From positions 1 to 37,886 of the forward strand of contig JBDRCO010000083.1 in assembly GCA_043821645.1 (NCBI GenBank): a DNA stretch of 37,886 nucleotides, read 5' to 3'. Positions 10,943-37,886 of this stretch are shown one piece after another. Source of the DNA: Pseudomonadota bacterium (GTDB lineage Bacteria > Myxococcota > JACRCW01 > JAFGSX01). The notes under the pieces are model-generated. The model saw nothing but the letters and a program-made list of their open reading frames with translations, was not told the origin of the DNA and searched no databases. A program made the translations under genes and the position numbers. Each line of letters starts with the position of its first letter. Position 1 is the first letter of the stretch.

Positions 10943-11142
10943 CAGGATATATCCTCCGAGGCGCAGGTCAGCGCTTCACGATCCCGACGCGCACGAGCGA
11001 CACGACCAACCCCACACGTGATACCTCCGAGGTACCCGTGCCTTCCGAGGCGGCATGGCTCTCGCCGTGCGCACTTCCAGCAATCGTGAGCATCTGCTAT
11101 TTTTTGCCCAATCTCGGACACGACACACTGGAGGGGGGATCT

Positions 11143-11847
11143 ATGATTCGCATGAATCCCAGAGCGCGCAGTCGCGTCTCGCACTTCCTGTCTCGACGAT
11201 ATTTCTGGCTCTCCACAGTGCTCGCCATCGGTGGTGCTGGTGCCGCCGGTCTTGCGTTCGCCGGCGCTGCGAACCAGGCGATCAAGCTGCGCAGCAAGCC
11301 CGCCATGTGCATGTCGCTCAAGAACAATAATTGGGACAACGGCAACCCGTTGATCCTGGCGCCCTGCAGCGGGCCCGCGAGCCAGGTCTTCTGGCGCTAC
11401 GAGTCGGGCAAGATCCAAGCTGCCAGCAAGACGACCAAATGCATCGTCAAGAAGAACGACAATTTCGACAACGGCAACCCGATCCAGCTCGGGGATTGCT
11501 CGGGGCCTGACCGCAACGTGAAGTGGGCCTTCAACCCGGCGCCGGGTTTCTTCATGCTTGGCGGCAATCCAGGCAAGTGCATCGCCAAGAAATATGGCAA
11601 CACCGATGCAGGCAACCCCATCCACCTGTGGGACTGTTCCGGCAGCGCCGGCAATCTTCGGTGGTCACTCGGCGTCCCGAGCGGGAGCGACGGCATGGGT
11701 ACTCCTGGCGCATCCGGTCCTGGTACCGGCGGCCAGTCCAGTGCGAACAGCTCTTCGGCGGCTGGCCAGACGAACCAGGCGTCGCAGAACACCGACTCGA
11801 CGACACCCGTTCCTGGTGCTCCGACGCAGGCGGGTTCCAGCCAGTAG
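11143..11847 (+). CDS. Secreted ricin-B (beta-trefoil) lectin-like protein, possible Tat substrate
   Basis: GGAGG RBS; SRRYF followed by a hydrophobic signal; three repeats C-x(7-8)-[ND][GA]GNP[LI].L..CSG....W; Ser/Gly/Thr-rich tail. Confidence 0.8.
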   Translation: MIRMNPRARSRVSHFLSRRYFWLSTVLAIGGAGAAGLAFAGAANQAIKLRSKPAMCMSLKNNNWDNGNPLILAPCSGPASQVFWRYESGKIQAASKTTKCIVKKNDNFDNGNPIQLGDCSGPDRNVKWAFNPAPGFFMLGGNPGKCIAKKYGNTDAGNPIHLWDCSGSAGNLRWSLGVPSGSDGMGTPGASGPGTGGQSSANSSSAAGQTNQASQNTDSTTPVPGAPTQAGSSQ

Positions 11848-15368: not shown

Positions 15369-15490
15369 GTCTCCAGCTCCTTGGTTTCGATGCCGTTTCC
15401 AGATCGTGCCGGTCCCTTGTGGTTTCTCGAAATACCTCTTGTGTCCCTGTGGTACCCCCTGGTATACATCGCGAGAGAACGGAGGACAAC

Positions 15491-16585: not shown

Positions 16586-16865
16586 CTCTGTCCTCGTCGT
16601 CCTCGCCCTGTGCATGTCCATGCCTGCCCTCGCCGCCGGCGGCGTGGGTGGCGACATGGGCAGGTTCGGCGACCTCATCAACACCGGCATCACCTGGCTG
16701 CAGGGCCTGGCCCTGGCCGGCTGCGCCATCGGCTTCATCCGCTCCGGCGTCATGTACAACTCCGGCGATCCCCAGGCCCGGGACGCAGCCAAGGGCGCGG
16801 CCATGGGCGCCGCCGTGGTCGCGGGCGCCGTCATCATCGTCCAGTTCGTGAAGGGCTTCTTCTAG
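16566..16865 (+). CDS. VirB2/TrbC-like pilin
   Basis: GTG behind AGGAGG; signal peptide ending PALA; two hydrophobic helices around GDPQARDAAKG; position before the VirB3/VirB4-like genes. Confidence 0.78.
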   Translation: MTSRLRSSVLVVLALCMSMPALAAGGVGGDMGRFGDLINTGITWLQGLALAGCAIGFIRSGVMYNSGDPQARDAAKGAAMGAAVVAGAVIIVQFVKGFF

Positions 16866-17101
16866 TGAACCCGACGACGACAGGACCCGCCGGGCCGCAC
16901 CCGCACGAGCTGTCCATCCACTCGACCTCGGTCGAGCAAGCTCCAGCCTCCCCTGGCCAGCAGTGGGAGGACTGGTCCGGCTCCCTCGCCATGGCCCTCG
17001 CGCCCGTCCTCACCGTCCTGCTGATCCTTTCCCACTTCAAGCGGGTAGCGCGCCTGCTCGGCTCTCCCGAACCTCCCTTCAAGGCAGCGAACCATGGATG
17101 A
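16865..17101 (+). CDS. Small single-TM membrane protein
   Basis: GTG overlaps the pilin stop; hydrophobic LAMALAPVLTVLLIL; overlaps the next start. Confidence 0.5.
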   Translation: MNPTTTGPAGPHPHELSIHSTSVEQAPASPGQQWEDWSGSLAMALAPVLTVLLILSHFKRVARLLGSPEPPFKAANHG

Positions 17102-17465
17102 CGCAGACGTCGCCCTCGACGGCGAGCTCATCTTCCAGGGCCTGACCTACCGCTGGTCCTTCCACGGCCTGCAGCTCGGCCACTTCTCCCTCGCTGGCGG
17201 CCTGACCATGGTGGTCTTCTTCCTGGGCATCTTCCTTGACTTCAACATCCTGTACGGCTTCGCCTTCTTCGCGGCGGCCTGCATGGCCCTGGTGGTCATC
17301 CAGTGGCGCAAGCCTCCGGACTACCTGGGCGAGCTTTATGACCTGGCCACCCTCCCCAGGCACCTCACGGCCCTCGACGACGATCCGTGGACCGTCCCCT
17401 TCCCCGTGGCGCCAGAGGACCTCGCCACGAGTCGGATGGGACCACACAGCAGGAGAACTTCATGA
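17094..17465 (+). CDS. VirB3/TraL-like inner membrane protein
   Basis: 123 aa, two TM segments followed by KPPDYL; ATGA-coupled to the VirB4-like gene. Confidence 0.7.
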   Translation: MDDADVALDGELIFQGLTYRWSFHGLQLGHFSLAGGLTMVVFFLGIFLDFNILYGFAFFAAACMALVVIQWRKPPDYLGELYDLATLPRHLTALDDDPWTVPFPVAPEDLATSRMGPHSRRTS

Positions 17466-23615: not shown

Positions 23616-26231
23616 ATGTGTCCGACCAGGGACGAGCTGGAATTCAGGGAGGAGTCGCTCGGACAGGAGTCCGTGGCTCCCTCCTCCCCCGACCAGGCCA
23701 CGACCCCTCTGCGCCCTGACCGCAAGGCCAGCACCGCAGCAGCGACGCCCGAACCCTCCATCACCGTCACGGCCCAGCTCCTCTACCCCACCACCAGTCC
23801 AAAGCCTGCCCTGGTGTCCGAGCCTCCAGGTCCCTACAGCCCAGAACCTTCCGGCGAGCCCTCCGCACCCGGCGACGGCACCCGCTTTCAGGCCCCGCAG
23901 GCTGGCACCGGCGACGACACCTCCGCCATCGAGGAGCTGTCCCCCGATGACGTCGAGCAGGTGACCAGCTCCAACATGGTCCTCGGCACCACGCTCGGCG
24001 GCAAGTACCGCATCGTCTCCGAGCTGGGCGCCGGAGGCATGGGTCGCGTCTACCGGGCCCGCGACCTGTCCCTGCAGCGTGACGTGGCCATCAAGGTCAT
24101 GCGCGAGTCTTTCCTGGAGAGTGCCAGCGAAGACGTCAAAAAACTCTTCGAGCAGCGCTTCGAGGTCGAGGCCAGGCTGCCCGCGGCCATCTCCCACCCC
24201 AACATCGTGGCCATCCACGACCGTGGCGTGCACCAGGAACTGTCCTACCTGGTCATGGAGTTCCTTCCCGGCTCGCGCTCCCTCGCCGATCTGGTGAAGG
24301 AGGCCATGGCCGCGAAGAAGTTCATCGAGACGGAGCTCGTCAGGGACATCTTCCTGCAGATCGCGTCCGCTCTCAGGGCCGTGCACTCGAGGCCAGGCAC
24401 CTTCCACCGCGACATCAAGCTCGACAACATCCTGCTGTGCGACCTGCCTGGTGGCGGGCAGGTGGTGAAGCTCATCGACTTCGGCATCGCCCACGAGGAC
24501 AGCAGCGACCGCACCCAGACAGGCCTGCTCCTGGGCACACCCCGCTACCTGGCGCCCGAGTTCTTCGAGTACGACGAGGAATGCCGGCCCCTGGTCATGG
24601 ACCACAGGGCAGACCTCTATGCGCTGGGCGTGGTCCTGTACCAGGTCCTCGTGCTCAGGCGGCCCTACGCGAACATCTCGGACGTCCGCGAGGCCATGGC
24701 GTCCTTCAAGTCGACCACGAACTACCCCGCTCCACCGACAGAGTTCAGGCCCTCCATCTCGGTCGGCTGGGACTTCGTGACCATGAAGCTGCTCGCCCGC
24801 AACCGCGAGTACCGCTACCACAGCGCCGCGGACCTGATGGTCGACCTCAAGCACCTCGAGGCCCTTCCCCCCTACGAGGGTCCGGGTGCCCGCCAGCGCC
24901 CCGCAGCAGACAGCATCCTGAAGCCCGTCCAGCCCGCACCCCAGGAGCCAGGGCAGGATCCACGGGACCCTGCCCCTCCCGAGCTTCCGGCACACGAGGA
25001 TCCAGACGCCGCCTCCCTGAGCGCCTTCGGCGTCGGGCCGCAGGCTTCCCCTGCCGGCACCACCTCCCAGCCGTCGAACCCTTCCGGGTCCGAAACCGGC
25101 GCAGCCGCCAGCGCCTCACAGCCCTCCACCTCCAACCTTCAAAGCCTGTCCGGAGCCCTCCCCTCACCAGCCAGGCCCGGAGCACCAGGGCCAGTTCTTC
25201 CGACCCAGGCCACATCTTCCACGGACGCCTGGGCGCCCGCTCCTGACGACGGCAGCAAGAAGGGCATGAGGCTGGCCCTCGTGGCCGGAGCAGCCTTCAT
25301 TGCTGTCCTGATCGGCGTCGGCGCCATCGTGAAGGGCCTGGAGACGCTGTCAGCCCGCAACGAGGTCGCGTCCACCGAGTGGGATCCCCCGGAAGCGGAT
25401 CAGGCCAGGCGCGACAGGGCCGAGTGGATGAAGGCCATGCAGGACGAGGCACCGCCCGTGCGTCCCGAGCCCGTCGTGAAGGCCCCACCAGCCCCTGCTC
25501 CGCAGGAACCCGTCGCCGAACCGGCGCCAGGCCCCAGGAAGACCACCAGCCGCCCAGCCACCACCAGGAAGGCGAGCACCCCGTCGCCAGAGACAGCAGC
25601 AGCCCAGCCTGCTGCGCCCCCTGTCGACGACTACGCAGCCATCTACGGCACGGCCAACAAGGACCTGTCCGGCGGCACCGTGACCATGCGGGTCAACCAG
25701 GACAGCACCGAGCCTTCCGCTGCTGGTTCCGTCGCTGGCAAGGTCATCTCGGCGACCCTCCTATCCGACGTGGCCGACAGGCCCGCGGGCGCAGCCGTCA
25801 TCGCCAGGGTCACAAAGGCCATGACCCTTGGCAGCAAGCGCATTCCAGCCGGTGCCGAGGCCCACGGCACCGTGACCAGCTCGTCAGGCCTGAGGATCTT
25901 CGTGGAGTTCAATCTCTTCCGTCTTTCCGACGGTAGCACCATCACCTTCAAGGGCACCGCCACCGACCCCAGAGGCCGGCAGGGCATTCCTGGCAAGAAG
26001 CTGCTCAATGCAGGCACGGCCACCGGCGTCGCTGCCAACGTCGGCGGCAACCTCGTCGACCAGGCCGGCAGCGTGCTGGCCGAGAACGTCGACAGCAAGC
26101 TGGCCAGGGCCGGCGTGACCTCCAGCTTCTCCGAGACCGGCCGCCGCTCCGGCGCCCTCAGCACCGAGGAAGACGCCGTCGTCGCCAGCAAGGGCACGGC
26201 CTTCAGCATCTACGTGCAGTCGGTCGACTGA
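23616..26231 (+). CDS. Fusion: Hanks-type Ser/Thr protein kinase - TM - Pro-rich linker - VirB10/TrbI-like domain
   Basis: LGAGGMGRVY, VAIK, HRDIKLDN, DFG, GTPRYLAPE, DLYALG; TM at about 25266-25331; C-terminal ISATLLSDV...VIARV...IPAGAEAHG...RIFVEF...DPRGRQGIPG...KGTAFSIYV. Confidence 0.85.
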   Translation: MCPTRDELEFREESLGQESVAPSSPDQATTPLRPDRKASTAAATPEPSITVTAQLLYPTTSPKPALVSEPPGPYSPEPSGEPSAPGDGTRFQAPQAGTGDDTSAIEELSPDDVEQVTSSNMVLGTTLGGKYRIVSELGAGGMGRVYRARDLSLQRDVAIKVMRESFLESASEDVKKLFEQRFEVEARLPAAISHPNIVAIHDRGVHQELSYLVMEFLPGSRSLADLVKEAMAAKKFIETELVRDIFLQIASALRAVHSRPGTFHRDIKLDNILLCDLPGGGQVVKLIDFGIAHEDSSDRTQTGLLLGTPRYLAPEFFEYDEECRPLVMDHRADLYALGVVLYQVLVLRRPYANISDVREAMASFKSTTNYPAPPTEFRPSISVGWDFVTMKLLARNREYRYHSAADLMVDLKHLEALPPYEGPGARQRPAADSILKPVQPAPQEPGQDPRDPAPPELPAHEDPDAASLSAFGVGPQASPAGTTSQPSNPSGSETGAAASASQPSTSNLQSLSGALPSPARPGAPGPVLPTQATSSTDAWAPAPDDGSKKGMRLALVAGAAFIAVLIGVGAIVKGLETLSARNEVASTEWDPPEADQARRDRAEWMKAMQDEAPPVRPEPVVKAPPAPAPQEPVAEPAPGPRKTTSRPATTRKASTPSPETAAAQPAAPPVDDYAAIYGTANKDLSGGTVTMRVNQDSTEPSAAGSVAGKVISATLLSDVADRPAGAAVIARVTKAMTLGSKRIPAGAEAHGTVTSSSGLRIFVEFNLFRLSDGSTITFKGTATDPRGRQGIPGKKLLNAGTATGVAANVGGNLVDQAGSVLAENVDSKLARAGVTSSFSETGRRSGALSTEEDAVVASKGTAFSIYVQSVD

Positions 26232-26506: not shown

Positions 26507-27292
26507 TCATCCCTGTTCAGGCTTCCTACGCCCGGTGGGCTTGCTCCACGTGCGGATCTTCTGAACCGTCTTGCCGAGCGGCGGGCTTGGCCTCTTGTGA
26601 AGGTCCGCACTGAGCGAGGAGAGTAGCTCGCCCCTCAGTTCGCTGACCTGCTGAAGCACCCGCCGCGGCGTGTCCTCGGCAGCCACGCCAAAGCCGCACG
26701 CGTCCTCGGAGAGCCTCGCGCCATTGAGCGAGATGAGGAGCGCTTCCTCGTCGAGCCCGGAGTCGACCCGCCGCCCCCGCTCGATGAGCTGAGGCAGCGT
26801 CAGCTCCACATGGGCCATGATCCACAGCAGGTCAAACAGGTCCTTCTCGCTGCAGCGGCTCACCAGGGTGGCCGCCTTGGTGCACAGCAGCGTGTCGAGC
26901 GACGCCACGTGCAGCCCACCCTCCAGGACATGAAACCCGCCAACCTCGAAGAGCTGCGGGTCGAGCACCACGTCGATGGTGAACAGGTGACCGTCGAGTC
27001 GAGCACTGGCGTGAAAGTACTGCGCGCTCTGGCGAGCATCGAGCAGCTCGGCGCCGATCTCGGCGAGTGAGCGCACGGCCAGCAGGGTGGCCCTCTGATC
27101 GAACTCGCTGCGGGTGAACAGATCGAGGTCGTCGGAGCGACGGTGCCCGGCGTAGAAACCGGCAAGTGCTGTCCCTCCGACCAGCATCACCTCGCCGGGG
27201 TTCTTGGAGAACACGTGTTCCAGGGCCCTCATCAGCCCTCGCGGAAGCACGGATCTGGCTAGATCAAGCCGAGGCTGCGCTGCAGGTTCCAC
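26507..27292 (-). CDS. AbiEii-family nucleotidyltransferase toxin
   Basis: LVGGTALAGFYAGHRRSDDLDLF, TK..TLVSR..EKDLFDL. Confidence 0.88.
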   Translation of the reverse strand: MEPAAQPRLDLARSVLPRGLMRALEHVFSKNPGEVMLVGGTALAGFYAGHRRSDDLDLFTRSEFDQRATLLAVRSLAEIGAELLDARQSAQYFHASARLDGHLFTIDVVLDPQLFEVGGFHVLEGGLHVASLDTLLCTKAATLVSRCSEKDLFDLLWIMAHVELTLPQLIERGRRVDSGLDEEALLISLNGARLSEDACGFGVAAEDTPRRVLQQVSELRGELLSSLSADLHKRPSPPLGKTVQKIRTWSKPTGRRKPEQG

Positions 27293-27747
27293 AGCTTCTC
27301 CAGGGCAGAGCGCTTGCGCGGTGGCAGGTACTTCTTGAAGCTCGCGAATTTCTTCCAGGCACAGTCGCCTGCAATCCTGGCGGCCTCGAACAGACCCCTT
27401 TTCTCGACCAGGCGAGCCAGGGCGCGGTCATCTTCCCGGGCCAGGGCCACGAGAAATGCGTCGAGATCTTCGAACGAGTGATCCCATAGCAGCTCTGCTG
27501 TGAGGTGCTCCCTCTCGGCAGCAGACAGCCCCGGAAGCGGTCTGGTCAGCACGTCGAGCGACACGCCGAGCCTGTCGGCCAGCGCCGTCAGGTGCGAGCT
27601 GCGCAGGTCGACCGTGGCATCTGTGTGGTCGGGATCGTTGCGTAGCCACAGCGACACGGCCTGACGGCTCACCCCCGCGAGCTTCGCCAGCTCACTCTGG
27701 TTGAGGCCCCTGGCCCGGGCCACCGTCCGCAAGGTCCCCTGGTTCAC
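27259..27747 (-). CDS. XRE-HTH antitoxin/regulator paired with the AbiEii-family toxin
   Basis: RARGLNQSELAKLAGVSRQAVSLW HTH; C-terminal LLWD...ARLVEKRG domain; overlaps the toxin gene. Confidence 0.8.
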   Translation of the reverse strand: MNQGTLRTVARARGLNQSELAKLAGVSRQAVSLWLRNDPDHTDATVDLRSSHLTALADRLGVSLDVLTRPLPGLSAAEREHLTAELLWDHSFEDLDAFLVALAREDDRALARLVEKRGLFEAARIAGDCAWKKFASFKKYLPPRKRSALEKLWNLQRSLGLI

Positions 27748-27889: not shown

Positions 27890-27935
27890 TCCCCCTCACA
27901 AGCCCGCCCGGATTCTTCCTCCTCCTTCCAGCCCT
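27890..27935 (+). repeat. 46-bp imperfect direct repeat C, copy 1
   Basis: Matches 29030-29075 at 41/46 nt (core GCCCGGATTCTTCC). Confidence 0.85.
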
Positions 27936-28969: not shown

Positions 28970-29029
28970 GCTTCCAGCAGGTCCGACGCTGTCCCCGCCT
29001 GAAAACTCTCCTGAGCTCGTGCCGAGCGT

Positions 29030-29075
29030 TCCCCTTCAAAAGCCTGCCCGGATTCTTCCGCCTCCATCCAGCCCT
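29030..29075 (+). repeat. 46-bp imperfect direct repeat C, copy 2
   Basis: Matches 27890-27935. Confidence 0.85.
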
Positions 29076-29398
29076 CCACAGCCCAACTACCTTCCCACCA
29101 CCACTCACCCCTTCCTTGCGTGCCTCGTGCCGAGCCTCCCTCGTCGAGGCCACGTGGCGTCGTCCCGCCCGGGCTCGCCCGGCCTTCCTCCTTGCGTGTC
29201 CTTCTCGACGGGCTCCATCCCTGCATCTGCGGGCTCTGCTTTCTGTCCCCTCCCTGAGCTCTCTGCGAGAGCCCAGCTCGGCTCAGCCCCTCCCTGCGGT
29301 CGGGGCCTCGCACAAAGCGCCCTGGGCTGCCGGGAGGTCGCCTCGTTCGGCTGTGGGGCGACACGAGGCCCACCAGGACGGGACCTCAGGAGGACGAG

Positions 29399-30301
29399 AT
29401 GAAGAAGAAGTTCGACCGCGAAGCAGCCAGGGAGCAACTCGAGACGACCTTGAACACCCTCAAGCAGGGCATCGCGGCTCTCACCACCAGCGAGGACTGG
29501 GAAAAGTTCCTGGAGGTCAGCGCAGCCTTCCACAGCTACAGCTTCAACAACTGGATGCTCATCTTCATGCAGATGCCCCACGCGACCCGCGTGGCCGGCT
29601 TCAGGACCTGGCTCAAGCTCGACCGGCAGGTGAAGAAGGGCGAGAAGGCCATCCGCATCCTGGCGCCCAGCCCCCGCAAGTTCACCGCCCAGGTCGAGAA
29701 GCAGAACCCCACCACTGGCGAGGTCAGTGTCGAGCAGGAAGAACGCAGCTACATGCGGTACCGGGCCGTGCCCGTGTTCGACATCAGCCAGACCGACGGC
29801 GAGGACCTGCCGAGCCTCACCACCGAGCTGCAGGGCAATGCCGACGAGGACCTCGTGGCCCAGGACCTCTTCAACCGCCTCGAGTCCCACGCCTTCAAGG
29901 CTGGCTTCTGTGTCGAGGTCAGGCACATCAGCGGAGCTGCCAGCGGCTACATGGACCCCTCAAGCCGCGTGCTGGCAGTGGAGCAAGACCTCCCGGTCCT
30001 GCACCGCGCCAAGACCCTCGCCCACGAGTGCGCCCACATGGTCCTGCACGCCGACCTGGACATGAAGCTCGAGCACAACTCCCGCAGCCAGCAGGAAGTC
30101 GAGGCCGAGAGCGTAGCCTTCTGCCTCCTGAAGGCCTTCGGCCTGGACTCGTCGCTCTGCTCTTTCGGCTACGTTGCAGGCTGGAGCAATGGTGACCCCG
30201 ACAAGGTCACCGAGGCTGGACAGAACATCCACAAAGCCTTCCACCAGCTCCTCGACGCCACGGCCCCCTCCACCACCCAGGACCTCGATACCGCGGCCTG
30301 A
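29399..30301 (+). CDS. ArdC-like ssDNA-binding / zincin-like metallopeptidase protein (anti-restriction family)
   Basis: FHSYSFNN.MLI..Q.P.ATRVAGF.TW..L.RQVKKGEKAI.I.AP, VFDISQT, TLAHECAH, EVEAES, SFGYVAGW; AGGAGG RBS. Confidence 0.88.
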   Translation: MKKKFDREAAREQLETTLNTLKQGIAALTTSEDWEKFLEVSAAFHSYSFNNWMLIFMQMPHATRVAGFRTWLKLDRQVKKGEKAIRILAPSPRKFTAQVEKQNPTTGEVSVEQEERSYMRYRAVPVFDISQTDGEDLPSLTTELQGNADEDLVAQDLFNRLESHAFKAGFCVEVRHISGAASGYMDPSSRVLAVEQDLPVLHRAKTLAHECAHMVLHADLDMKLEHNSRSQQEVEAESVAFCLLKAFGLDSSLCSFGYVAGWSNGDPDKVTEAGQNIHKAFHQLLDATAPSTTQDLDTAA

Positions 30302-30639
30302 CCGAGGCCAGGCCTCGTGCCGACTCGGAATCCGGGCCATTCGCCGCAAGAAGCCAAGCTCATCCAATCTACTTTGGGGCACCCACGACCAGCTCCCGCC
30401 GCTGCCGGAAGCGAATTCAAGTCTGACGTCGGTGTGCTCCACCAAGTCTCTGGGACGCAACCAGCGCCGAGGTGGGTCGAGTCCTACGCTGTCGTGCCGA
30501 GGTCTGACCTTGACCCGGAAGAGCCGCGCTGTGACGATGTGGCGGCTGTTCTAGACTGCCTATCACGACAAGAACCAGACAGGTTGAAGGGAGGAGGGGG
30601 GGGGGGGATGGGCCCTGAGAGGGAACCCGTTTATATTTC

Positions 30640-31458
30640 CTATGCCCCACTGAACATTATCTGAAGAGCACCGTGATTCCCAACCCTGGGCCGCCAAAGC
30701 GAGCAAGAAACGTATTTTTCTTGCTCCCGTCCAAACCAGATCACCCAACTGTTCTGATCACCTTCAACCGGGGAGGCCACAACACACTGTTCTTGCAGCA
30801 ATAGCGGTCTATCAGTTTGCTTTCGATCCAGACCATACCAAGAACCATCATTCTCAACGAAGTACCAATACCTACATTTGGTTCTGACATGTCTGGGTAG
30901 ACTCTCTGGTGGAGTTCCCTCTTGCCACGACGCGAACGGAGAGTTAAGTAATAGATATCTCCGGGTCTCGTCCTCCACCACTGTCATCTCGAGAACAATG
31001 AATCTTTCGGAATCGACGCCGTTTTCCCTCATCCAAGCCACGGTGGATCGAATCCAGCCATTGTACTGGGTCAACACAGCCGGCTGAACATGCGCCTGCC
31101 GATCAATTCCCATGTCGCGGAGACCATGCTCTTTCAGCATCTGAGCGTGATGCAGGACTTCCGCTATGGCGATTGGCTCGTATTTTGCCGCGTGCTTAAG
31201 TTCGACTACGTAGACCGTTGCATCGGCGTCCCAGATGACATCGGGCCGATACTTGTATCCCCACTTAGTCTTGAGCTGTTGCGTAATATTCCTACTTTGA
31301 ATGTTGGAGAGCCATTGGGGGCAAGCAGCAATAGCCCATCCAATTTGCTGACGCCTTGGCCAGTCATCAAGGAGCCTCTGGATATCTTTTTCAGCTAACT
31401 TCGGATAAGACAGCTCTGTCCAGCCCATTGATATTGTCCGTTCTTTAATTTGCCCCAA
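30640..31458 (-). CDS. Putative PD-(D/E)XK nuclease-domain protein (lower-GC cargo)
   Basis: YRPDVIW...VYVVELK motif; visibly AT-richer than the backbone. Confidence 0.6.
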   Translation of the reverse strand: MGQIKERTISMGWTELSYPKLAEKDIQRLLDDWPRRQQIGWAIAACPQWLSNIQSRNITQQLKTKWGYKYRPDVIWDADATVYVVELKHAAKYEPIAIAEVLHHAQMLKEHGLRDMGIDRQAHVQPAVLTQYNGWIRSTVAWMRENGVDSERFIVLEMTVVEDETRRYLLLNSPFASWQEGTPPESLPRHVRTKCRYWYFVENDGSWYGLDRKQTDRPLLLQEQCVVASPVEGDQNSWVIWFGREQEKYVSCSLWRPRVGNHGALQIMFSGA

Positions 31459-31500
31459 CAGTACTCAGTGCAATCACACCTTGCCTTGCCGTCGGTATCT

Positions 31501-31851
31501 CTACACAAAGGTCCGCACAGCACCAAGGTCGACGTCAAATATTGTCCACGTCTTTTCGTTCAGTCGCACGTACAGCGCTAGTGCATTTTTGTGGTTGTCT
31601 GTAACGATTCGCAGCTCACGTGGCATGCCTCCATTTGTGGCTCTCCCCAGCAACCTGACGTCTTGGTCCGCTTTATGGTGCAAGGCCTCGTGGAAGCTAG
31701 TGAACTTCACGTGATCAATATAGAGCCCACTCTTTCTTGAACTTGGAGTATGCACCAGGACATAAACCCAGCCGGCTCCTCTATCAAATTCAATGTAAAC
31801 GGAGCGCTGAGTTCCAGAGTCTGCTGTTCCCGGGAATGTGTCGTCAGGCAT
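31501..31851 (-). CDS. Hypothetical protein (lower-GC cargo; may be 5'-truncated)
   Basis: 116 aa from ATG 31851; the frame stays open upstream through the ardC-copy junction at 32007. Confidence 0.5.
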   Translation of the reverse strand: MPDDTFPGTADSGTQRSVYIEFDRGAGWVYVLVHTPSSRKSGLYIDHVKFTSFHEALHHKADQDVRLLGRATNGGMPRELRIVTDNHKNALALYVRLNEKTWTIFDVDLGAVRTFV

Positions 31852-32006
31852 ATCTGCACCCTTCTTTCGGCCTTTCGGCAATTTCTCCAATATAGCTGCC
31901 TGTAGTGGTTTGGCGGAATGCCGTTCCGACTCTGAGTGCTCCCCTACTCTCCCAAAGCCATGTTCTGGATGACACATGTCACTGAGGTAGAGAACCCCGA
32001 GTTCGT

Positions 32007-32738
32007 TGCCCCACGCGACCCGCGTGGCCGGCTTCAGGACCTGGCTCAAGCTCGACCGGCAGGTGAAGAAGGGCGAGAAGGCCATCCGCATCCTGGCGCC
32101 CAGCCCCCGCAAGTTCACCGCCCAGGTCGAGAAGCAGAACCCCAACACCGGCGAGGTCAGTGTCGAGCAGGAAGAACGCAGCTACATGCGGTACCGCGCA
32201 GTGCCCGTGTTCGACATCAGCCAGACCGACGGCGAGGACCTGCCGAGCCTCACCTCCGAGCTGCAAGGCAACGCCGACGAGGACCTCATGGCCCAGGACC
32301 TCTTCAACCGCCTCGAGGCCCACGCCTTCAAGGCTGGCTTCTGTGTCGAGGTCAGGCACATCAGCGGAGCTGCCAACGGCTACATGGACCCCTCAAGCCG
32401 CGTGCTGGCGGTGGAGCAGGACCTGCCAGTCCTGCACCGCGCCAAGACCCTCGCCCACGAGTGCGCCCACATGGTCCTGCACGCGGACCTGGACGCGAAG
32501 CTCGAGCACAACTCCCGCAGCCAGCAGGAAGTCGAGGCCGAGAGCGTAGCCTTCTGCCTCATGAAGGCCTTCGGCCTGGACTCGTCGCTCTGCTCTTTCG
32601 GCTACGTTGCAGGCTGGAGCAATGGTGACCCCGACAAGGTCACCGAGGCTGGACAGAACATCCACAAAGCCTTCCACCAGCTCCTGGACGCCACGGCTCC
32701 CTCCACCGACCAGGACCTCGACAAGGCGGCTTGACCGA
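32007..32738 (+). pseudogene. 5'-truncated second copy of the ArdC-like gene
   Basis: Aligns without gaps to 29574-30305 (about 26 substitutions by hand count); lacks the first ~58 codons and the RBS. Confidence 0.9.
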
Positions 32739-33027
32739 TCTGGGACGATTGCGGCGGCGATGTCACCAATTCGCAGTCCTTCACGCTGCAATGTCGGACG
32801 GGGGAGGCTATCAAGCACGAGTCAGCAGATCTCTCCTGGTGGGCGCCCCGTACCGATTACGGGCGCCAGCCTTGATCATCGATTCGGCGAGAGGCTGCGC
32901 GTTGTCGGGCCCGGTCTGATCGTGAGCATTCTTGTTCGGCCTCTCGATTCCCCAAGATCCCCGGTCCTATTTTTCTCCGAGCCCTCATGTTACACTCTCG
33001 GTGCTCAATTTGTGGGGAGGGAACCCG

Positions 33028-36000
33028 ATGCATCGCCTGCATTACTCTCACCTCGCTGTGGTGTGTCTTCTGGCAATGACCGCAGCGGCTTGCCCCGCGC
33101 CAGCAGCAAACAGCGACGGCGGCACCACGACGCGTCCGGACGCCGCCAGCGGGGATGGGCAGTCGGGGCAGGACACCGGGGTGCCCCCGCCCACCGATGC
33201 GGGAGGCCACGACATCCAGCTCACTCAGGATAGCGGAACCCCTCCGCCCACCGACGCAGGGGACCGCGACACCCTGCTCACTCAGGATAGCGGGAACCCT
33301 CCGCCCACCGATGCAGGAACCGCGGACAGAGTGATTGACCTGCGAGGCTCTATCCAGAAAGGGCCATTCGTTGTTGGCTCCTCTGTGTCGGTGTCTCTGC
33401 TCGACAGTTCCCTGTCACCCACGGGACTGGTCTTCAACACGACAACCAGCAACAACCGTGGAGAGTTCGAGATCAGCTTTTCGACCGCTGGTCCTGTATC
33501 CCTTGAGGGATTTGGCTATTACTACAACGAGCTTCTGGGATCTCTGTCGTCGTCGACGCTGACCTTGCGGGCGCTCCATGTACCGACTGGCTCGGGACCT
33601 CAGTACGCATTCATCAACATGGTCACCCACCTGACCACTCCGAGAGTTCGCGCCCTGGTGGTTGGTGGACAGTCCTTTTCAGATGCGGTCCAGCAGGCCG
33701 AGCGGGATCTCTGGCGCGAGCTGGCGATCACTCCATCTGATTTCGAGCTGAACTTTCGAGGGATTGACCTCAGTGTGCTGGGAGGCGATAGCGACGGCAA
33801 TGCATACCTGCTTGGGGTCAGTTCCGTGCTCATCGAGGTCGCGGTGTTGCGAGGTGGCAGCGTCGAGGCGAACCTTCAGGAACTTCTCAACACCTTTGCC
33901 CTGGATCTGGCCGACGGCGTTCTTCAGCCCGCGCTTGAAGCGGAGTTCGCCACTGCGCTACTGGCGCTCGACACCGTCGATGTCGAGCAGAAGCTTGGCG
34001 AGCGCTTCATTTCCATCGGGTCAAGCGAGACAGTGCCCGATATGGACCGGGTACTTGACCAGGATCGAGATGGCTGGACCAATGCGACCGACAACTGTCC
34101 ACTAGTCGCGAATCCTGGTCAGGAAAATGCCGATGGCGACGATCTCGGTGATGCTTGCGACGAATGCCCTGCGTTGTTCTGCAATCATCAATGCTTGCCC
34201 GCTTCGGGGAGCGCGGGGCGGTCGGTTGATCTGTGCTGGGAGCCCTGCCCCTTGGAGGGCTGCGGGAGCGGGAACTGCGTGACGTCAGGGGACCTGGCGG
34301 TCCTGGATGACGGCAGCACGACCATGGTCGCCTTCTGCGCCGAGGGTTGCGATCCGTCCGTTTCCGGTGCATGCGGTGATGGGATGGAGTGCTGCGCCCT
34401 TGTCGAGGGCTCCATACATCTGGGCGTGTTTTTGTTCGACCTACCTCACTGGTCATGTGTGGCGGGCGACTTCTGCGGCACAAAGAGCGAGGAAGAGTCT
34501 TGTCCTGAACACGACGTGACCAGGAATGACTGTGGACCTGGCCTGCTATGTAGCCGGCTTCTTTTCGAGGAAACTGCCCACTGTCATGCTGGTTGTGACC
34601 CATCAGATGTGATGTCTTGCGGAGGTCGCAGCTGCGTTGAAACCACTTGGGAAACAAGGGGTCTGTTCCATGTCTGCGAATCTGGACTTAGGTGCGACTC
34701 GTCCAGCAGTTGCGAGGATTGTCTAACCAGTACTTGCGCGCTCGAGACCTGCGCATCGGCAATTGATGCCTGCCTGGCTGACGAGAATTGCCTGGGCGTC
34801 AACGAATGCATCGCTGCCTGTGCCGTGGATCATTGGATGGATTCTTGTATCATTGGGTTCTATGGTGGCGAGCCTGCGCCCGGACTCTCCGAAGATTGCT
34901 ACAAGCATTTTAGCACCCTTCCCCCACCCCAGGAGTGCATCGATAGCTGCACGAGCTACAACCCATCGGGTGCCGCGATCCTGGATGCCGCGAATGAATG
35001 CATGCGATGTGAAGCCTGTTCCGCAAGTTGTCATTCCGCGGAATGCTCCGTTTGCGGAAACGGAAAACAGGAGCGAGGAGAGCGTTGTGACGGCGACGAT
35101 CTGGGAAGCGTCACTTGTGCAAACCTGGGGCTGGGCACCGGCAGTCTCGATTGTTTGCCTGACTGTAATTCGTTCGATGTGTCCGGCTGTTCCGGCAACG
35201 AGACATGCCATGACGGAATGATCCAGTACCCGGAACTGTGCGACGACGACGCGCTCGGCGGTGTCACGTGCAATGACCTCGGATTCTCTGGCGGTGGTGT
35301 CCTCGGTTGCATGACGGATTGCTCGGGCTACGACACAGGGTCGTGCCTGTACGAGGGCTGTGCCGGGTTGACTTGCTCTGCCTGGCGAACGAGCACATGC
35401 GTGGAAACCCCGCTTGTCCAGATGCAGGGAGGAGCGCAGGACAACCCTTGCCGCGAAAATTTCGACCTTTGCCTGGCTGACAGCCTGTGCTCCCAGTTGA
35501 TGATCTGCTTGAACGGTTGCGGAACGTTAGCCGGGACCTGCGTGCAGCAGTGTCGCGCTTCCAACAGCGCAGGCGCTCCACTGTTCGATTCGATCGTCGA
35601 CTGCCTCATGTGCGACTATGCTCGACCTCCAGCATGTGATCGAGCATGCGACCGCTGCGGAGATGGCAAGCGAGATCGGCTTGAGACCTGTGATGGTGAC
35701 GACCTGGACCGACAGTCCTGTGCCGGGCTCCATCTTGGCGGCGGTGTGCTCGGCTGTGCACCAGGCTGTGATTCCTTTGACACAAGCGCGTGTACCACAG
35801 TCAGCACCTGTGGTAATTCCGTGGCTGAAGGAAACGAAGAATGTGACGGGATTGATCTGGCTGGGCAGGACTGTCTGACATTGGGTTTCGGAGGCGGTGG
35901 AGATCTCTCGTGTCGCGAAACGTGCAAATTTGACACTACTCGCTGTCTGGGCAATTGCTTCGATCCGTCGGCCAGGTGCACGCTTTCGACAGATGGCACA

Positions 36001-37806
36001 GATGGCGCGTGCGCGGAGCTGGTCTGTGACCACGAGGAATCAGTTTGCCTGGGAGAAGCAACCTGCATCGACTACTTCAACTGTGTGACCGGCTGCAAGT
36101 ACGAGGAGTCGTGCGTGGCTTCCTGCGACATTACATACAGCGAGAGCGCGACCTACCGCGCAGCGAATGACGCGTGCAGGATCTGTAAGGCGCACCACCC
36201 ACAGTGCCGTGATCAGTGTGGCAGTTGCGGCGATGGTGTCATCAACAACAATGAGCGCTGCGACGGCGTTTCCCTTGCTGGGGAATCCTGCTCATCCCTT
36301 CTGCTCGCTGATGGAACCCTGGCCTGTTCTCCGGACTGTCTCAGCTTCGATGTTTCTGGATGTGGCTCCGTGGCTTTCTGTGGAAATGGCGCGGCAGAGG
36401 GAAACGAACTCTGCGATGGAGACGATGTCCGGCACGTCACCTGTTTCTCTCTCGGGTTTAGTGGTGGTGGTCTGAAGTGCACCTCCGGATGTAACGCCTT
36501 CGACACGTCAGGCTGCATGCCCCTCGACTGCGGCGCAGTCTGCGACAAGAATCCCGAATGCGTTGACCTGCGCGCTTGCGACCCGGCAGGAAACTCATCA
36601 GCGTGCTTTGACCTTCATCCAGAAGGCGTAACGGATTTCAACCAGCAACTCTGGTGTCAACAGTGCCATGTTGTTGGCATGCAAGATTTTCAAGGCTGTC
36701 GCTGCGGTGACAACCTCCGGCTATACCCGGAAGTTTGCGATGGTCCTGACCTCGGCTTCGATTCTTGCAGTTCCCTAGGGCTCGGCGGCGGTCAACTCGC
36801 GTGCTCTGCAGATTGCGGATCTTTTGACATCTCTGGTTGCTGGGAAAAACCATCGTGCGGCGATGGAGTGGCTGAATCAGGCGAGGTCTGTGATGAAGCG
36901 GACCTCAACGGTCTATCCTGTGAGGGATACGGGCTGATCGGGCACCTCCAGTGCAGCGCAGACTGCGCAGCGGTAGACCTCGATGGCTGCATGACGATAC
37001 CCCAACCCTACTCCGCCTGCACTGTTGCGACGTGCAGTGGCACCTGCGATGACTGCAGAAGAAGCGGCTGTGCTGAAAGTTCGTGTGCCGCCGAGGTGGA
37101 GACATGCGACACCAGCGCCGATTGTGTGGCATTTTCCACCTGTCTCGAGAGCTGCTCGGACAGCTCATGCATCACGGCATGTGAAGCTCTGCACCCTGCA
37201 GGGGTACCGCTATTTGGTGCCAGGTTCAACTGTTCCCTGTGCGCGTGTCCAGACTGCCGTGGCATGTATTACCCACGTGCCGTGTGCGACGGCGGTGTCT
37301 GTGCGACTTGCCTGGAGGACACCTGTGCTGTCTCAGGATGCACGACGCAGACCGACGCGTGCAACGGCATCCCCGAATGTGTCTCTCTCAAAGCCTGCGC
37401 TCTTGGCTGCACCGATCAGGAATGCGTCTATGACTGCCGCCTGCTGCACCCTGCCGGTGTGGCTGCTTTCGAACCCCTGATGAGCTGTCTCTGTCCGAAG
37501 TGTCCCTCGGACTGTGCGGGCATCTGCTCATTCAGTCCATCCTGCTACGCTCTGGATTGCTCAACCTGCATGAGCACAGGCTGTGCGAGCGATGTCTGTG
37601 ACGGCCGCACGGCTGTCTGCGGTGCAAATGCGGAGTGCGTCGAGTTATATGGCTGCGTTTTCGGATGCTCAGACCTGACTTGCACCGAAGCATGTCAGAC
37701 CCAGCATCCGGCTGGCGTTGATGACTTCAGGGCCTTCCTCGGATGCTTCTGTGACAGATGCTCGCTGGATTGCAGCGAAGACCTTCGCTGTCTCTCCTTG
37801 AGATGA
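33028..37806 (+). CDS. Very large Cys-rich lipoprotein (QKGPF domain, TSP3 repeat, myxobacterial CG[ND]G repeats)
   Basis: ATG 33028 behind GGAGG; lipobox-like TAAAC; three PPPTDAG repeats; DQDRDG...DNCPLVANPGQENADGDDLGDACD; about eight CG[ND]G...E.CD..DL....C..LG...G.L.C...C..FD...C repeats. Confidence 0.85.
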   Translation: MHRLHYSHLAVVCLLAMTAAACPAPAANSDGGTTTRPDAASGDGQSGQDTGVPPPTDAGGHDIQLTQDSGTPPPTDAGDRDTLLTQDSGNPPPTDAGTADRVIDLRGSIQKGPFVVGSSVSVSLLDSSLSPTGLVFNTTTSNNRGEFEISFSTAGPVSLEGFGYYYNELLGSLSSSTLTLRALHVPTGSGPQYAFINMVTHLTTPRVRALVVGGQSFSDAVQQAERDLWRELAITPSDFELNFRGIDLSVLGGDSDGNAYLLGVSSVLIEVAVLRGGSVEANLQELLNTFALDLADGVLQPALEAEFATALLALDTVDVEQKLGERFISIGSSETVPDMDRVLDQDRDGWTNATDNCPLVANPGQENADGDDLGDACDECPALFCNHQCLPASGSAGRSVDLCWEPCPLEGCGSGNCVTSGDLAVLDDGSTTMVAFCAEGCDPSVSGACGDGMECCALVEGSIHLGVFLFDLPHWSCVAGDFCGTKSEEESCPEHDVTRNDCGPGLLCSRLLFEETAHCHAGCDPSDVMSCGGRSCVETTWETRGLFHVCESGLRCDSSSSCEDCLTSTCALETCASAIDACLADENCLGVNECIAACAVDHWMDSCIIGFYGGEPAPGLSEDCYKHFSTLPPPQECIDSCTSYNPSGAAILDAANECMRCEACSASCHSAECSVCGNGKQERGERCDGDDLGSVTCANLGLGTGSLDCLPDCNSFDVSGCSGNETCHDGMIQYPELCDDDALGGVTCNDLGFSGGGVLGCMTDCSGYDTGSCLYEGCAGLTCSAWRTSTCVETPLVQMQGGAQDNPCRENFDLCLADSLCSQLMICLNGCGTLAGTCVQQCRASNSAGAPLFDSIVDCLMCDYARPPACDRACDRCGDGKRDRLETCDGDDLDRQSCAGLHLGGGVLGCAPGCDSFDTSACTTVSTCGNSVAEGNEECDGIDLAGQDCLTLGFGGGGDLSCRETCKFDTTRCLGNCFDPSARCTLSTDGTDGACAELVCDHEESVCLGEATCIDYFNCVTGCKYEESCVASCDITYSESATYRAANDACRICKAHHPQCRDQCGSCGDGVINNNERCDGVSLAGESCSSLLLADGTLACSPDCLSFDVSGCGSVAFCGNGAAEGNELCDGDDVRHVTCFSLGFSGGGLKCTSGCNAFDTSGCMPLDCGAVCDKNPECVDLRACDPAGNSSACFDLHPEGVTDFNQQLWCQQCHVVGMQDFQGCRCGDNLRLYPEVCDGPDLGFDSCSSLGLGGGQLACSADCGSFDISGCWEKPSCGDGVAESGEVCDEADLNGLSCEGYGLIGHLQCSADCAAVDLDGCMTIPQPYSACTVATCSGTCDDCRRSGCAESSCAAEVETCDTSADCVAFSTCLESCSDSSCITACEALHPAGVPLFGARFNCSLCACPDCRGMYYPRAVCDGGVCATCLEDTCAVSGCTTQTDACNGIPECVSLKACALGCTDQECVYDCRLLHPAGVAAFEPLMSCLCPKCPSDCAGICSFSPSCYALDCSTCMSTGCASDVCDGRTAVCGANAECVELYGCVFGCSDLTCTEACQTQHPAGVDDFRAFLGCFCDRCSLDCSEDLRCLSLR

Positions 37807-37831
37807 TACTTCTCTGACCTGTGCGAGATCT

Positions 37832-37886
37832 AGGCCGAGAGCGTAGCCTTCTGCCTCATGAAGGCCTTCGGCCTGGACTCGTCGCT
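37832..37886 (+). pseudogene. Third, shorter 3' fragment of the ArdC-like gene (runs off the window)
   Basis: Identical to 32535-32589; one difference from 30102-30156. Confidence 0.9.

Follow-up and report, generated by a model that had tools for sequence, protein, structure and literature searches.

The window analysed here, an entire contig of 37,886 nucleotides (C83), comes from the 7.07-Mb genome of an uncultured groundwater myxobacterium. A conjugation set comprising a coupling protein, a VirB4-type ATPase and a relaxase candidate occupies positions 12298 to 20077 (Table 1); the two Replic_Relax-like ORFs match their Pfam family weakly (E 2e-5 and 8e-3). Judging from these genes the window is part of a conjugative element, either a plasmid or an ICE, and a tblastn search of the genome found no second copy of the conjugation backbone genes. 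Further along the window lies a gene for a 300-residue protein, the start of which overlaps the stop codon of an ORF for 127 residues, so that the two probably belong to the same operon.

The domain content of the 300-residue protein makes it a member of the ArdC anti-restriction family: Pfam recognises ArdcN (PF08401) at residues 19-127 (E 4.3e-12) and the IrrE/M78-like Peptidase_M78 domain (PF06114; E 7.6e-8). The sequence on its own finds no match to ArdC of plasmid R388, and only a profile built from 30 homologues detects that distant similarity (structures 6i89/6sna, E 6e-7); the same profile also matches IrrE (3dte, E 1e-3). Residues H209, E210 and H213 are invariant across the 30 homologues. 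R388 ArdC combines an N-terminal ssDNA-binding domain with a C-terminal HExxH metalloprotease, and it is for this protein only that a role in guarding incoming DNA against type I restriction in the recipient is known (Gonzalez-Montes et al. 2020, PLoS Genet, PMC7213743). The two proteins have both domains in common; they differ in that their similarity is distant and in that the passages on R388 ArdC in that study describe no array of truncated copies. In a protein search of 5.8 billion sequences 6182 of 7372 candidates reach E <= 0.001, and the nearest matches outside this contig, encoded on Logan contigs, are 61% and 57% identical.

Table 1. Features of the conjugative element and of the ardC array in the window.
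Feature	Position	Strand	Remarks
Replic_Relax-like ORF	12298-13338	minus	Pfam, weak
Coupling protein	13242-15368	minus	Pfam TraG-D_C/TrwB, E 1e-10
Replic_Relax-like ORF	15419-16585	plus	Pfam, weak
VirB4/TraC-type ATPase	17387-20077	plus	TraC_F_IV/P-loop_TraG, E 6e-17
127-aa ORF	29019..29402	+	no family match
Intact ardC (copy 1), 300 aa	29399..30301	+	ArdcN and HExxH (HECAH) metalloprotease domain
Segment D	30302..30345	+	non-coding; common to copies 1, 3 and 4; not after copy 2
Cargo 1	30346..32006	.	two minus-strand ORFs; G+C 0.526
Cargo 1 ORF, 262 aa	30640-31428	minus	candidate NucS_C/DUF91-type PD-(D/E)xK nuclease
Cargo 1 ORF, ~158 aa	31501-31977	minus	no family match
ardC copy 2	32007..32738	+	ardC nt 176 (codon 59) to stop plus 4 nt
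Cargo 2	32739..37828	+	one large gene; G+C 0.593
Large cargo 2 gene, ~1592 aa	33028-37806 (ORF 32932-37806)	+	
ardC copy 3, start	37829..37886	+	from ardC nt 701, codon 234; cut by window end

Downstream of the intact gene, pieces of the ardC 3' end alternate with unrelated DNA. A blastn search with positions 29101-30700 against the window recovers two further matches: copy 2, which aligns without gaps to positions 29574-30305 (732 bp; 26 mismatches, 96.45% identity), and the first 58 bp of copy 3, which align with positions 30099-30156 with two mismatches. This confirms the layout that a sequence-only reading of the window had proposed, namely a full ardC, cargo, a 732-bp copy, further cargo and a shorter third copy. 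The same reading had counted about 96% identity, with half of the changes synonymous and no frameshift, and had seen copies 1 and 2 part 4 bp past the stop codon (TGACCGA being the last shared bases) with unequal 5' breakpoints; each of these details holds, the base changes being divided into 14 synonymous and 12 non-synonymous (the latter in nine codons) and the truncated copies starting at nt 176 and nt 701. Copy 2 is open across codons 59-300, its HExxH codons are unchanged and its translation carries both ArdC domains in Pfam.

A dN/dS comparison, which had been suggested as a check, gives dN 0.021, dS 0.093 and a ratio of 0.22 for copies 1 and 2 (P 6e-4, binomial test against neutral proportions). 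These values suggest that the divergence arose while both copies worked as genes, in separate elements. Going by their base changes, copies 1 and 2 behave as alleles of separate elements that diverged under purifying selection, in agreement with the earlier suggestion of sister-element alleles, and X1, the single sequencing run that contains the window (a groundwater metagenome, share of words 0.05), has other ardC variants that are ~88-92% identical at a depth of 6-14. Copies 1 and 2 have their mismatches in clumps, with identity tracts of 138 and 124 nt in between; a second-largest gap of at least 124 has a probability of 0.006 in 200,000 permutations, a distribution compatible with conversion between the repeats.

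Extending the contig, another check that had been proposed, completes copy 3 and adds a further unit. The reverse complement of a second contig, C62, overlaps the end of C83 by 141 exact bases, 83 of which are unique cargo 2 sequence, and carries copy 3 onwards at its positions 84-287 as far as the stop codon, for a total of 205 bp. The contig break inside copy 3 and the k-sized overlap point to a branch of the assembly graph at this place, and the continuation on C62 may be one of several population variants. Copy 3 is damaged by a 1-base deletion that shifts the frame and by a TAG at its second codon. Its 5' part has the variants of copy 2 at four sites, its 3' part those of copy 1 at five sites and segment D too, and a single switch point accounts for nine of the ten informative features; by these variants copy 3 is a mosaic of copies 1 and 2, as would be predicted for a crossover inside the repeat. 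Beyond copy 3, C62 holds cargo 3 and a fourth remnant of ~47 bp, which comprises the last few codons, the stop and ~35-40 bases downstream, has its breakpoint at ~nt 860, and derives from an allele far more distant than those of copies 2 and 3. The 5' breakpoints of the three truncated copies (nt 176, nt 701 and ~nt 860) thus differ from one another, and every copy reaches or passes the same ardC stop. With distance from the intact gene the remnants shrink and decay, from 732 intact base pairs through 205 frameshifted ones to ~47.

Directly behind the stop codon the homology of copies 1, 3 and 4 goes on for ~30-45 nt, in a non-coding stretch that we call segment D. The sequence-only reading had placed the boundary of variable DNA right after the stop; this is so for copy 2, which diverges at +4 nt, and not for copies 1, 3 and 4, where it lies ~30-45 nt further on. 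Segment D has only three copies in the 7.07-Mb genome, each directly 3' of an ardC stop inside the array. In copy 1 it holds a 15-bp palindrome (CGAGGCC-A-GGCCTCG), which is broken in copies 3 and 4. Segment D was also considered as a structured RNA or terminator and was rejected as such: its folds are not more stable than shuffled sequence (z -0.1 to -1.1), no terminator-like site coincides with it, and no Rfam family is found on C83 or C62. In remnant 4, segment D is conserved at 25 of 29 positions and the coding tail at 24 of 48 (Fisher P 0.0015), a difference that could point to a function of D as a site, beyond passive homology.

The DNA between the ardC copies is heterogeneous. The backbone has a G+C content of 0.659, and the cargo blocks have 0.526 (cargo 1), 0.593 (cargo 2) and 0.702 (cargo 3); these unequal values fit separate origins of the blocks, and the first of them agrees with the lower-GC cargo that had been noticed after ardC. 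Cargo 1 contains no family known to Pfam, NCBIfam or PADLOC and has one non-self homologue, 32% identical; for its 262-aa ORF an Atlas feature score of 0.91 to NucS_C clusters and a Cas4 match at E 0.14 offer a lead, and nothing firmer, to a NucS_C-type nuclease. Cargo 1 was examined as a transposon and discarded, the block having neither terminal inverted repeats nor a target duplication around it. The protein of the large cargo 2 gene begins with MHRLHYSHLAVVCLLAMTAAAC, which we take to resemble a lipoprotein signal, making it a putative lipoprotein. The gene contains three 57-bp tandem repeats (33169-33339), shows weak TSP_3 and Omp28-related matches, and has repeat domains that recur in chromosomal genes of the same genome. 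Cargo 3 (~3.2 kb, on C62) encodes a 461-aa protein without assigned function and a hybrid histidine kinase, and is directly bracketed by two copies of segment D. A 671-aa protein encoded beyond remnant 4 has matches at the domain level only, in 17 of 30 relatives, which are too unspecific to mark the flanking DNA as conserved chromosome. No common function is evident among the cargo blocks; family searches detect no toxin or immunity families in them, and the units have no repeats in common beyond those derived from ardC.

Genes for a recombinase that might have moved these blocks were sought by six-frame searches. Tyrosine recombinases (PF00589) have five matches in the genome, all of them outside C83 and C62; serine recombinases have none on the two contigs, and no recombinase-like family matches occur in the cargo blocks, leaving a stretch of 48 kb without a recombinase, although one may be encoded on an unassembled part.

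The reading that we favour, at about an even chance of being right, is that the locus is a displacement array at the edge between backbone and variable cargo, built by at least three recombinations with sister elements through ardC homology. In each of these events, DNA of a sister element would have entered the resident element with ardC as the common homology, setting the ardC 3' end and the donor's following genes beside the intact ardC. The ardC 3' end already in place would have been shunted downstream together with its cargo, so that the shorter and more decayed leftovers would be the older ones. The incoming piece, an ardC 3' fragment with its cargo, would have been circular or would have had ardC homology at both sides, and would have integrated into the resident ardC through RecA-type homologous recombination; every joint between a fragment and its cargo would have been made once, by homology-facilitated illegitimate recombination, and a dedicated recombinase would not be required. 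The most likely route through the ardC anchor is, in our view, the mechanism proposed for rhs tips. We infer the order of events, the recombination pathway, the sister elements as donors and the role of ardC as anchor from the nested truncated copies, their allelic divergence, the mosaic structure of copy 3, and the lack of both recombinase genes and cargo-end repeats on the two contigs. An anchor upstream, unrelated DNA downstream and displaced remnants are all present where no recombinase is found, the order of age being read from length and decay. That all three illegitimate joins should lie inside the 0.9-kb ardC would call for an added assumption, such as portable units or the preferential survival of short repeats, and the better preservation of D than of the coding tail in remnant 4 could speak against stacking by homology. 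It also counts against this reading that no donor or sister element, with intermediate forms, shared joints or microhomology to compare, was found in genome_contigs, metagenome_contigs, 61 relatives or 401 genomes of the phylum.

An unlikely alternative is site-specific accretion, in which the stop region or D is an attachment site for a recombinase or relaxase whose gene lies elsewhere and which would act in trans; either cargo would have been inserted at D, or whole elements would have piled up and decayed, as in CIME/ICE and tRNA-gene islands. The threefold occurrence of D in the genome, always directly after an ardC stop in the array, would fit such a site, as would its preservation relative to the coding tail of remnant 4, the two D copies around cargo 3 and the palindrome of copy 1. 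However, neither contig nor any cargo block encodes a tyrosine or serine recombinase, copy 2 diverges 4 nt past its stop and has no D, the palindrome is unbroken in copy 1 only, and the folds of D are no better than those of shuffled sequence. A D-like site that could mark a left end was not found elsewhere in the genome, and the exact pattern of stop plus D has no match in metagenome_contigs. The usual att repeats are, moreover, far shorter than duplications of 732 and 205 bp, which counts against this explanation.

Similarly improbable is a collapsed cointegrate, in which at least two whole sister elements fused, in tandem or as a cointegrate, and large illegitimate deletions then removed the duplicated backbone while short pieces such as the ardC 3' ends stayed. 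In such a case ardC would not be special, since short repeats survive where long ones recombine away. This explanation draws on another contig of the genome, C112, on which two full copies of a 738-nt gene lie 14.8 kb from each other, with 26 differences (dS 0.080, dN/dS 0.26), a divergence equal to that of the ardC pair. C112 also carries a second pair, of 311 bp at 96.1%. One merger with a ~96%-identical sister lineage would explain all three pairs, and the shortening of the fragments with distance from the intact ardC is also in keeping with it. On the other hand, C112 may not belong to the replicon of the ardC element, the other backbone genes of the window are not duplicated, and three independent deletions would all have to end inside ardC. 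Copy 4, moreover, comes from a much more distant allele, so that a single merger is insufficient for the whole array.

The third alternative, which we consider rather improbable, is an assembly chimera, in which the assembler would have linked co-assembled strains or variants that have one cargo block each, such as a variant with cargo 1 inside ardC and a second with cargo 1 behind it. The genome bin, of 140 contigs, has 3.95% contamination, and the 93-96% identity of several pairs of contig ends suggests that the sample contains a second close strain; the contig is broken inside copy 3, and X1, which over the window yields contigs of 150-360 bp at a depth of 2-4, bridges no joint of the array. 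However, the 5' joints of the truncated copies to unrelated DNA are all unique, and shared k-mers could not make such joints. Copies 1 and 2 match exactly over at most 138 nt, less than the 141-nt contig overlap, so that the path through them was probably unambiguous; the overlap of C83 and C62 contains 83 unique bases, and an alternative branch appears on none of the bin's contigs.

About as doubtful is the idea that the ardC 3' end together with D forms a dedicated platform for cargo capture in a family of conjugative elements. Portable cassettes of fragment plus cargo would then pass from one sister element to another in the course of conjugation, by means of a homology arm that each cassette brings along or of an unrecognised enzyme that recognises D. 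If true, it would amount to integron-like accretion without an integrase, beside an establishment gene with early expression in the recipient. Far less probable than any of these is an origin inside a single element, in which ardC would have been duplicated where it stands, its truncated copies would have drifted and cargo would have entered between them afterwards. Such a history would produce direct repeats of a gene on one contig and the decay of the distal copies (frameshift and TAG in copy 3). Against it, a dN/dS of 0.22 is not expected for a pair of which one member was a dead fragment from the split onwards, copy 2 runs through 732 bp at 3.6% divergence without a frameshift, and copies 1 and 2 differ from +4 nt after the stop.

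Returning to the displacement array, its relatives were sought at several levels. A protein search of genome_contigs gave no sister element, the 61 relatives contain only one ArdC match (28% identical), and the best full-length matches in the 401 genomes of the phylum are 37-38% identical. Among distant ArdC loci, 80 each from genome_contigs and metagenome_contigs (61 and 26 of them, respectively, with at least 5 kb downstream), none of the 160 has an extra ardC piece of at least 100 bp. An independent replicate is therefore missing, and the cargo hotspot suggested behind the ardC stop is, by these loci, not a general one. A second ArdC protein match accompanies three of the 80 loci from genome_contigs and none of those from metagenome_contigs; all three involve the N-terminal domain and lie 8-10 kb upstream. 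Extra DNA matches of a locus to its own ardC occur at 7/80 and 29/80 loci in the two sets, all 29-77 bp long, and mostly represent one 36-bp linker repeat within a longer ORF in gut Firmicutes, besides short intergenic repeats. PLSDB has 2523 records with an ArdC match, at 2721 places and all below 60% identity; the match is at a single place in 39 of the 40 records listed out of the 2523. A limited search of the literature, covering titles, abstracts and passages of PMC7039861, found no description of an ardC-anchored array. As a single metagenome-assembled example, with joints that reads do not bridge and with no relatives, the array is for the present a lead from which no general rule should be drawn.

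The cargo of plasmids and ICEs is usually put down to transposons, insertion sequences, integrons and integrases. In integrase-driven islands at the 3' ends of tRNA or protein genes, including CIME/ICE, the island DNA and, beyond it, a displaced 3' fragment lie behind an intact target, tandem stacks are formed, the integrase is encoded on or beside the island, and the att repeats are short. The ardC array resembles these islands in having an intact target gene followed by a tandem stack of displaced 3' fragments; it differs from them in the absence of a recombinase on 48 kb, in duplications of 205-732 bp and in one unit without the putative site D. With integron cassette arrays it would have in common the entry beside a fixed point and the movement of older units to the back, but there is no intI on C83 or C62 and no attC-like structured repeat at the cargo ends, and its units are genes of several kilobases, each with signals of its own.

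Further parallels are found in displacement arrays. Homology-facilitated illegitimate recombination does occur in E. coli conjugation, albeit rarely, at 3e-10 per recipient in the account of PMC3240628. For the Vibrio cholerae T6SS effector-immunity arrays, an upstream homology anchor combined with an illegitimate join has been proposed (Kirchberger et al. 2017, Sci Rep, PMC5361080), and as in these arrays units would have been shifted backwards with the oldest furthest away, remnant 3' ends stay behind and no known integrase is involved. The units retained in the T6SS arrays are, however, immunity genes under clear selection, whereas the ardC cargo has no evident common function; and intermediate arrays are reported from other Vibrio strains in that paper, whereas no relative of the ardC array was found here. 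The model for displacement of rhs C-termini invokes homologous recombination by way of circular intermediates, with core fragments that vary in length (Jackson et al. 2009, BMC Genomics, PMC2935791). The sequence-only reading had likened the locus to Rhs/CDI orphan arrays, with the difference that whole downstream genes are exchanged, and the comparison is apt: as in the Rhs arrays described in that paper, an intact gene is followed by 5'-truncated conserved fragments with different downstream DNA and G+C, and the old unit would be shunted downstream undeleted and without a recombinase. In Rhs and CDI systems, what varies is a toxin tip in frame with the rest of the protein, along with its immunity gene. 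In the ardC array all fragments end at the ardC stop, and what varies beyond it is a series of separate genes unrelated to one another, namely a nuclease-like ORFan, a putative lipoprotein of giant size and a hybrid kinase. YD repeats, a CdiA core and a toxin tip are absent from ArdC, and the array is situated on a conjugative element and not at a chromosomal toxin locus. If the array is real, cargo can be stacked, and not only swapped, at the boundary between backbone and cargo through the homology of a backbone gene alone; nested 3' fragments of the last backbone gene would then be a footprint for spotting such events, and the displacement logic of Rhs, CDI and T6SS loci would extend to the ordinary accessory genes of a conjugative element.

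The window is one complete contig (C83) and ends in an array founded on an ardC-like gene, in which an intact gene (copy 1) is followed by a first cargo block, a truncated 3' copy (copy 2), a second cargo block and the start of a third copy. The sequence-only reading had described the repeat accurately: in blastn copy 2 matches 29574-30305 over 732 bp with 26 mismatches and no gaps (96.45%), 14 of the changed bases being synonymous and the other 12, in 9 codons, non-synonymous, and the two copies diverge 4 bases past the stop. The 58 bases of copy 3 that lie on C83 match 30099-30156 with 2 mismatches. The search for more units past the contig end, which that reading had proposed, led to C62, a contig of 10,651 bp whose reverse complement and the end of C83 have an overlap of 141 identical bases (83 unique bases of cargo 2 and 58 of the repeat). 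C62 completes copy 3 up to its stop (205 bp, lacking one base and with TAG as its second codon; identity 96.1% with copy 2 and, over 236 bp including downstream sequence, 94.5% with copy 1) and adds a third cargo and a fourth remnant. This remnant is about 47 bp long; it agrees with the corresponding part of copy 3 at 87% identity and includes 32 bases 96.9% identical to 30293-30324. Its in-frame end reads ...APASDERQVEAA against ...APSTTQDLDTAA in ArdC, and relatives likewise end in AA. The array thus has four ardC ends (903, 732, 205 and about 47 bp), whose length and preservation fall with distance from the intact gene.

The source is a metagenome-assembled genome of 7.07 Mb in 140 contigs (completeness 94.7%, contamination 3.95%), and pieces of the window occur in only one sequencing run, X1, a groundwater metagenome by its label. 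By family search C83 codes for a conjugation apparatus. The ArdC protein matches Pfam ArdcN (E 4.3e-12) and an M78/IrrE-type protease domain (E 7.6e-8) with the HExxH motif HECAH; as a single-sequence query it has no match in the PDB, and a profile from 30 homologues matches the solved R388 ArdC structure 6i89 (E 6e-7). Judged from sequence, its membership of the ArdC family is sound; beyond the contig, the closest proteins reach 61% and 57% identity.

Features of the array, of the surrounding element and of related loci (C83 unless another contig is named)
Feature	Position	Strand	Remarks
Stretch shared with C20 (12128-12464, inverted)	424-759		337 bp, 95% identical
AbiEi-type antitoxin-like gene	3297-3905	+
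Giant paralogue	5112-7916	+	934 aa
Giant paralogue	7909-10779	+	956 aa
Ricin-B lectin-domain ORF	10822-11847
Coupling protein	13242-15368
VirB4/TraC-type ATPase	17387-20077
Ser/Thr protein kinase	23616-26231	+	871 aa; Pkinase E 4e-37
AbiEii-type nucleotidyltransferase toxin-like gene	26507-27292	-
HTH gene	27259-27747
46-nt motif	27890-27935; 29030-29075		89% identity
Replic_Relax ORFs			two, weak matches
ORF127	29019-29402		127 aa
Intact ardC (copy 1)	29399-30301
Segment D at copy 1	30302-30345		non-coding
Cargo 1	30346-32006
Second small ORF of cargo 1
Copy 2	32007-32738
Cargo 2	32739-37828
57-bp tandem repeats in cargo 2	33169-33339		three, 63-100% identity
Copy 3, C83 part	37829-37886		continues on C62
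671-aa and 170-aa proteins; open 1311-aa Big_7 protein	C62, past remnant 4 to contig end
X1 ardC variants	29388-29572; 32433-32709		about 88-92% identical; depth 6-14 (2-4 for exact pieces)
C112 gene pair	C112, 2310-3055; 17118-17863
C112 second pair	C112, 55-365; 7997-8303		311 bp, 96.1% identical
Repeat at start of C15 ArdC-like gene	C15, 12737-13096		locus L009, about 7738-8097

Several other features of the element deserve mention. The kinase lies within the row of conjugation genes, and its C-terminus weakly matches the conjugative-transposon protein TraM (E 3e-3). The two adjoining giant paralogues, upstream of the lectin-domain ORF, are 38% identical; they fall in no firm family by family search, and relatives of theirs lie on C111, C59 and C113. 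The AbiEi- and AbiEii-type genes belong to the same element and stand wide apart, the HTH gene coming next after the latter. The 46-nt motif (TCCCC.TCA.AAGCC.GCCCGGATTCTTCC...) precedes two plus-strand gene sets, the ORFs toward a GNAT gene and the ORF127-ardC pair, within unrelated flanks, and may be a common promoter or operator of establishment genes. At the left end, the ORF beside the stretch shared with C20 has a 42-aa match there (93% identical), indicating that the element has a small module in common with another locus.

No common function of the cargo blocks is apparent, and defence-system models run over the cargo gave no match except receiver-domain noise. Cargo 1 codes for a 262-aa ORFan, for which a single non-self homologue was found (32% identity); a language-model search puts the ORFan close to clusters of NucS_C/DUF91-type nucleases (score 0.91, 174 shared features) and Pfam offers Cas4 only (E 0.14), so that a nuclease of the NucS_C/DUF91 type is a lead rather than an assignment. 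Cargo 2 consists of one gene, whose product of about 1592 aa carries a lipoprotein-like signal and repeat domains that also occur, at 30-47% identity, in genes of the chromosome; the 57-bp tandem repeats of the gene code for a Q-D-S/T-G-x-P-P-P-T-D-A-G stretch directly after the signal peptide. Cargo 3 (about 3.2 kb) encodes a 461-aa protein with no family match and a hybrid histidine kinase/response regulator. The G+C content of cargo 1, 2 and 3 is 0.526, 0.593 and 0.702, respectively, and that of the backbone 0.659.

Copies 1 and 2 differ with dN 0.021 and dS 0.093, a dN/dS of 0.22 (NG86; 0.21 with LWL85, 0.07 with YN00), and the non-synonymous share lies below the neutral expectation (P 6e-4). 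This low share indicates that most of the divergence arose with both genes functional, in different elements, and the proposal that the copies are alleles from separate elements therefore holds; by the same measure it is unlikely that the gene was duplicated in place and one copy was dead from then on. The mismatches fall in clumps, between which stretches of 138 and 124 nt are free of differences (second-largest gap of at least 124, P 0.006); this is compatible with conversion between the repeats, and uneven constraint may have added to it. Copy 3 has mosaic structure, its 5' part carrying four copy-2 variants and its 3' part five copy-1 variants together with segment D, with one exceptional site. 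Other ardC variants, one with 22 differences over 185 bp and one with 23 over 277 bp, are present in X1 at deeper coverage than the exact window pieces, and such communities therefore contain related elements. One of these variants departs from the window sequence about 25 nt before the stop and so has another C-terminal tail.

A six-frame search of the genome found five tyrosine recombinases, all of them outside C83 and C62, and not a single serine recombinase; the cargo ORFs match no recombinase or transposase family (Pfam, NCBIfam, PADLOC), cargo 1 lacks terminal inverted repeats, and the units have no repeats in common except ardC-derived ones. In the displacement model outlined for rhs C-termini by Jackson et al. 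(PMC2935791), an episomal circle with a variable-length core fragment and a new tip enters by homologous recombination, and the old tip is moved further downstream; the layout behind that proposal is the layout seen here. Homology-facilitated illegitimate recombination with an upstream anchor is proposed for stacked T6SS immunity genes in the account of Kirchberger et al. (PMC5361080), and a report on E. coli conjugation describes such events as observed and rare, alongside recA-dependent single crossovers of circularised DNA (PMC3240628). Presumably an ordinary double crossover, both of its arms falling within that gene, could also bring a unit of ardC 3' part, cargo and 5'-truncated ardC into a sister ardC, and a crossover inside the repeat would leave the mosaic seen in copy 3. 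On the missing recombinase, the make-up of the units, the published models and this mosaic, we favour homology-anchored stacking from sister elements with middling confidence; ardC would then be the anchor, and the position after its stop a putative cargo hotspot. The wider interpretation first offered is partly supported: the allelic origin and the Rhs-like layout stand, and the boundary 4 bases past the stop proved true of one unit only.

A site-specific process acting at segment D, a further 30-45 nt past the stop common to copies 1, 3 and 4, would account for the conservation of that segment. Its 32-nt core occurs at only these three sites in the genome with up to 7 substitutions allowed, and between remnant 4 and copy 1 segment D is 25/29 identical against 24/48 for the coding tail (Fisher P 0.0015). 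However, D is missing after copy 2 and a recombinase from C83 and C62, which renders such a process improbable; D folds no better than shuffled sequence (z -0.1 to -1.1). A collapsed cointegrate, also unlikely, draws on C112 (locus L008), where a complete 738-nt gene (245 aa) occurs twice, 14.8 kb apart, with a divergence equal to that of the ardC pair (26/738 bases, dS 0.080, dN/dS 0.26) and homology that begins about 10 nt ahead of the ATG and ends precisely at the stop. Together with the second pair on that contig, this may record a further exchange with a sister lineage of about 96% identity. Slightly less probable still is an assembly chimera passing through a shared cargo block: the bin holds several contig-end pairs 93-96% alike and C83 breaks inside copy 3, which makes population variants likely, but every truncated copy meets unrelated DNA at a joint of its own, which shared k-mers are unable to make, and copies 1 and 2 match exactly over 138 nt at most, less than the contig overlap, which presumably equals the assembler's word size and would hence leave no ambiguous path. 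The X1 contigs over the window, of 150-360 bp only, bridge no joint of the array.

The ardC array does not look general. Sister elements were found neither among 61 genomes (ArdC match in 2, including the window's own) nor among 401 (11 at E <= 1e-10, again including its own; best full-length identity 37-38%), nor in further searches of genome and metagenome contigs. The suggested survey downstream of ardC homologues gave no second instance: an extra ardC piece of at least 100 bp occurred in 0 of 160 distant loci, 87 of which had at least 5 kb downstream, and the short extra matches were linker repeats within longer ORFs or intergenic repeats. In PLSDB, ArdC has matches in 2523 plasmids (2721 places in total), all below 60% identity. 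A second ArdC-like protein of the genome, only distantly related, is encoded on C15; it is 417 aa long, matches ArdcN at E 1.5e-4 and shares about 30-34% identity with the ArdC of the window. At the start of its gene lies a repeat of about 350 bp, found 82-91% identical on at least 8 contigs (also C112, C77, C16, C128, C5, C138 and C139). No description of an ardC-anchored array was found in a limited literature search. The array is best filed with the displacement arrays, a known kind, its putative anchor here being a conjugative-element backbone gene that encodes no toxin, and its stacked units whole genes; from a single metagenomic example, it would extend the reach of a known displacement mechanism.
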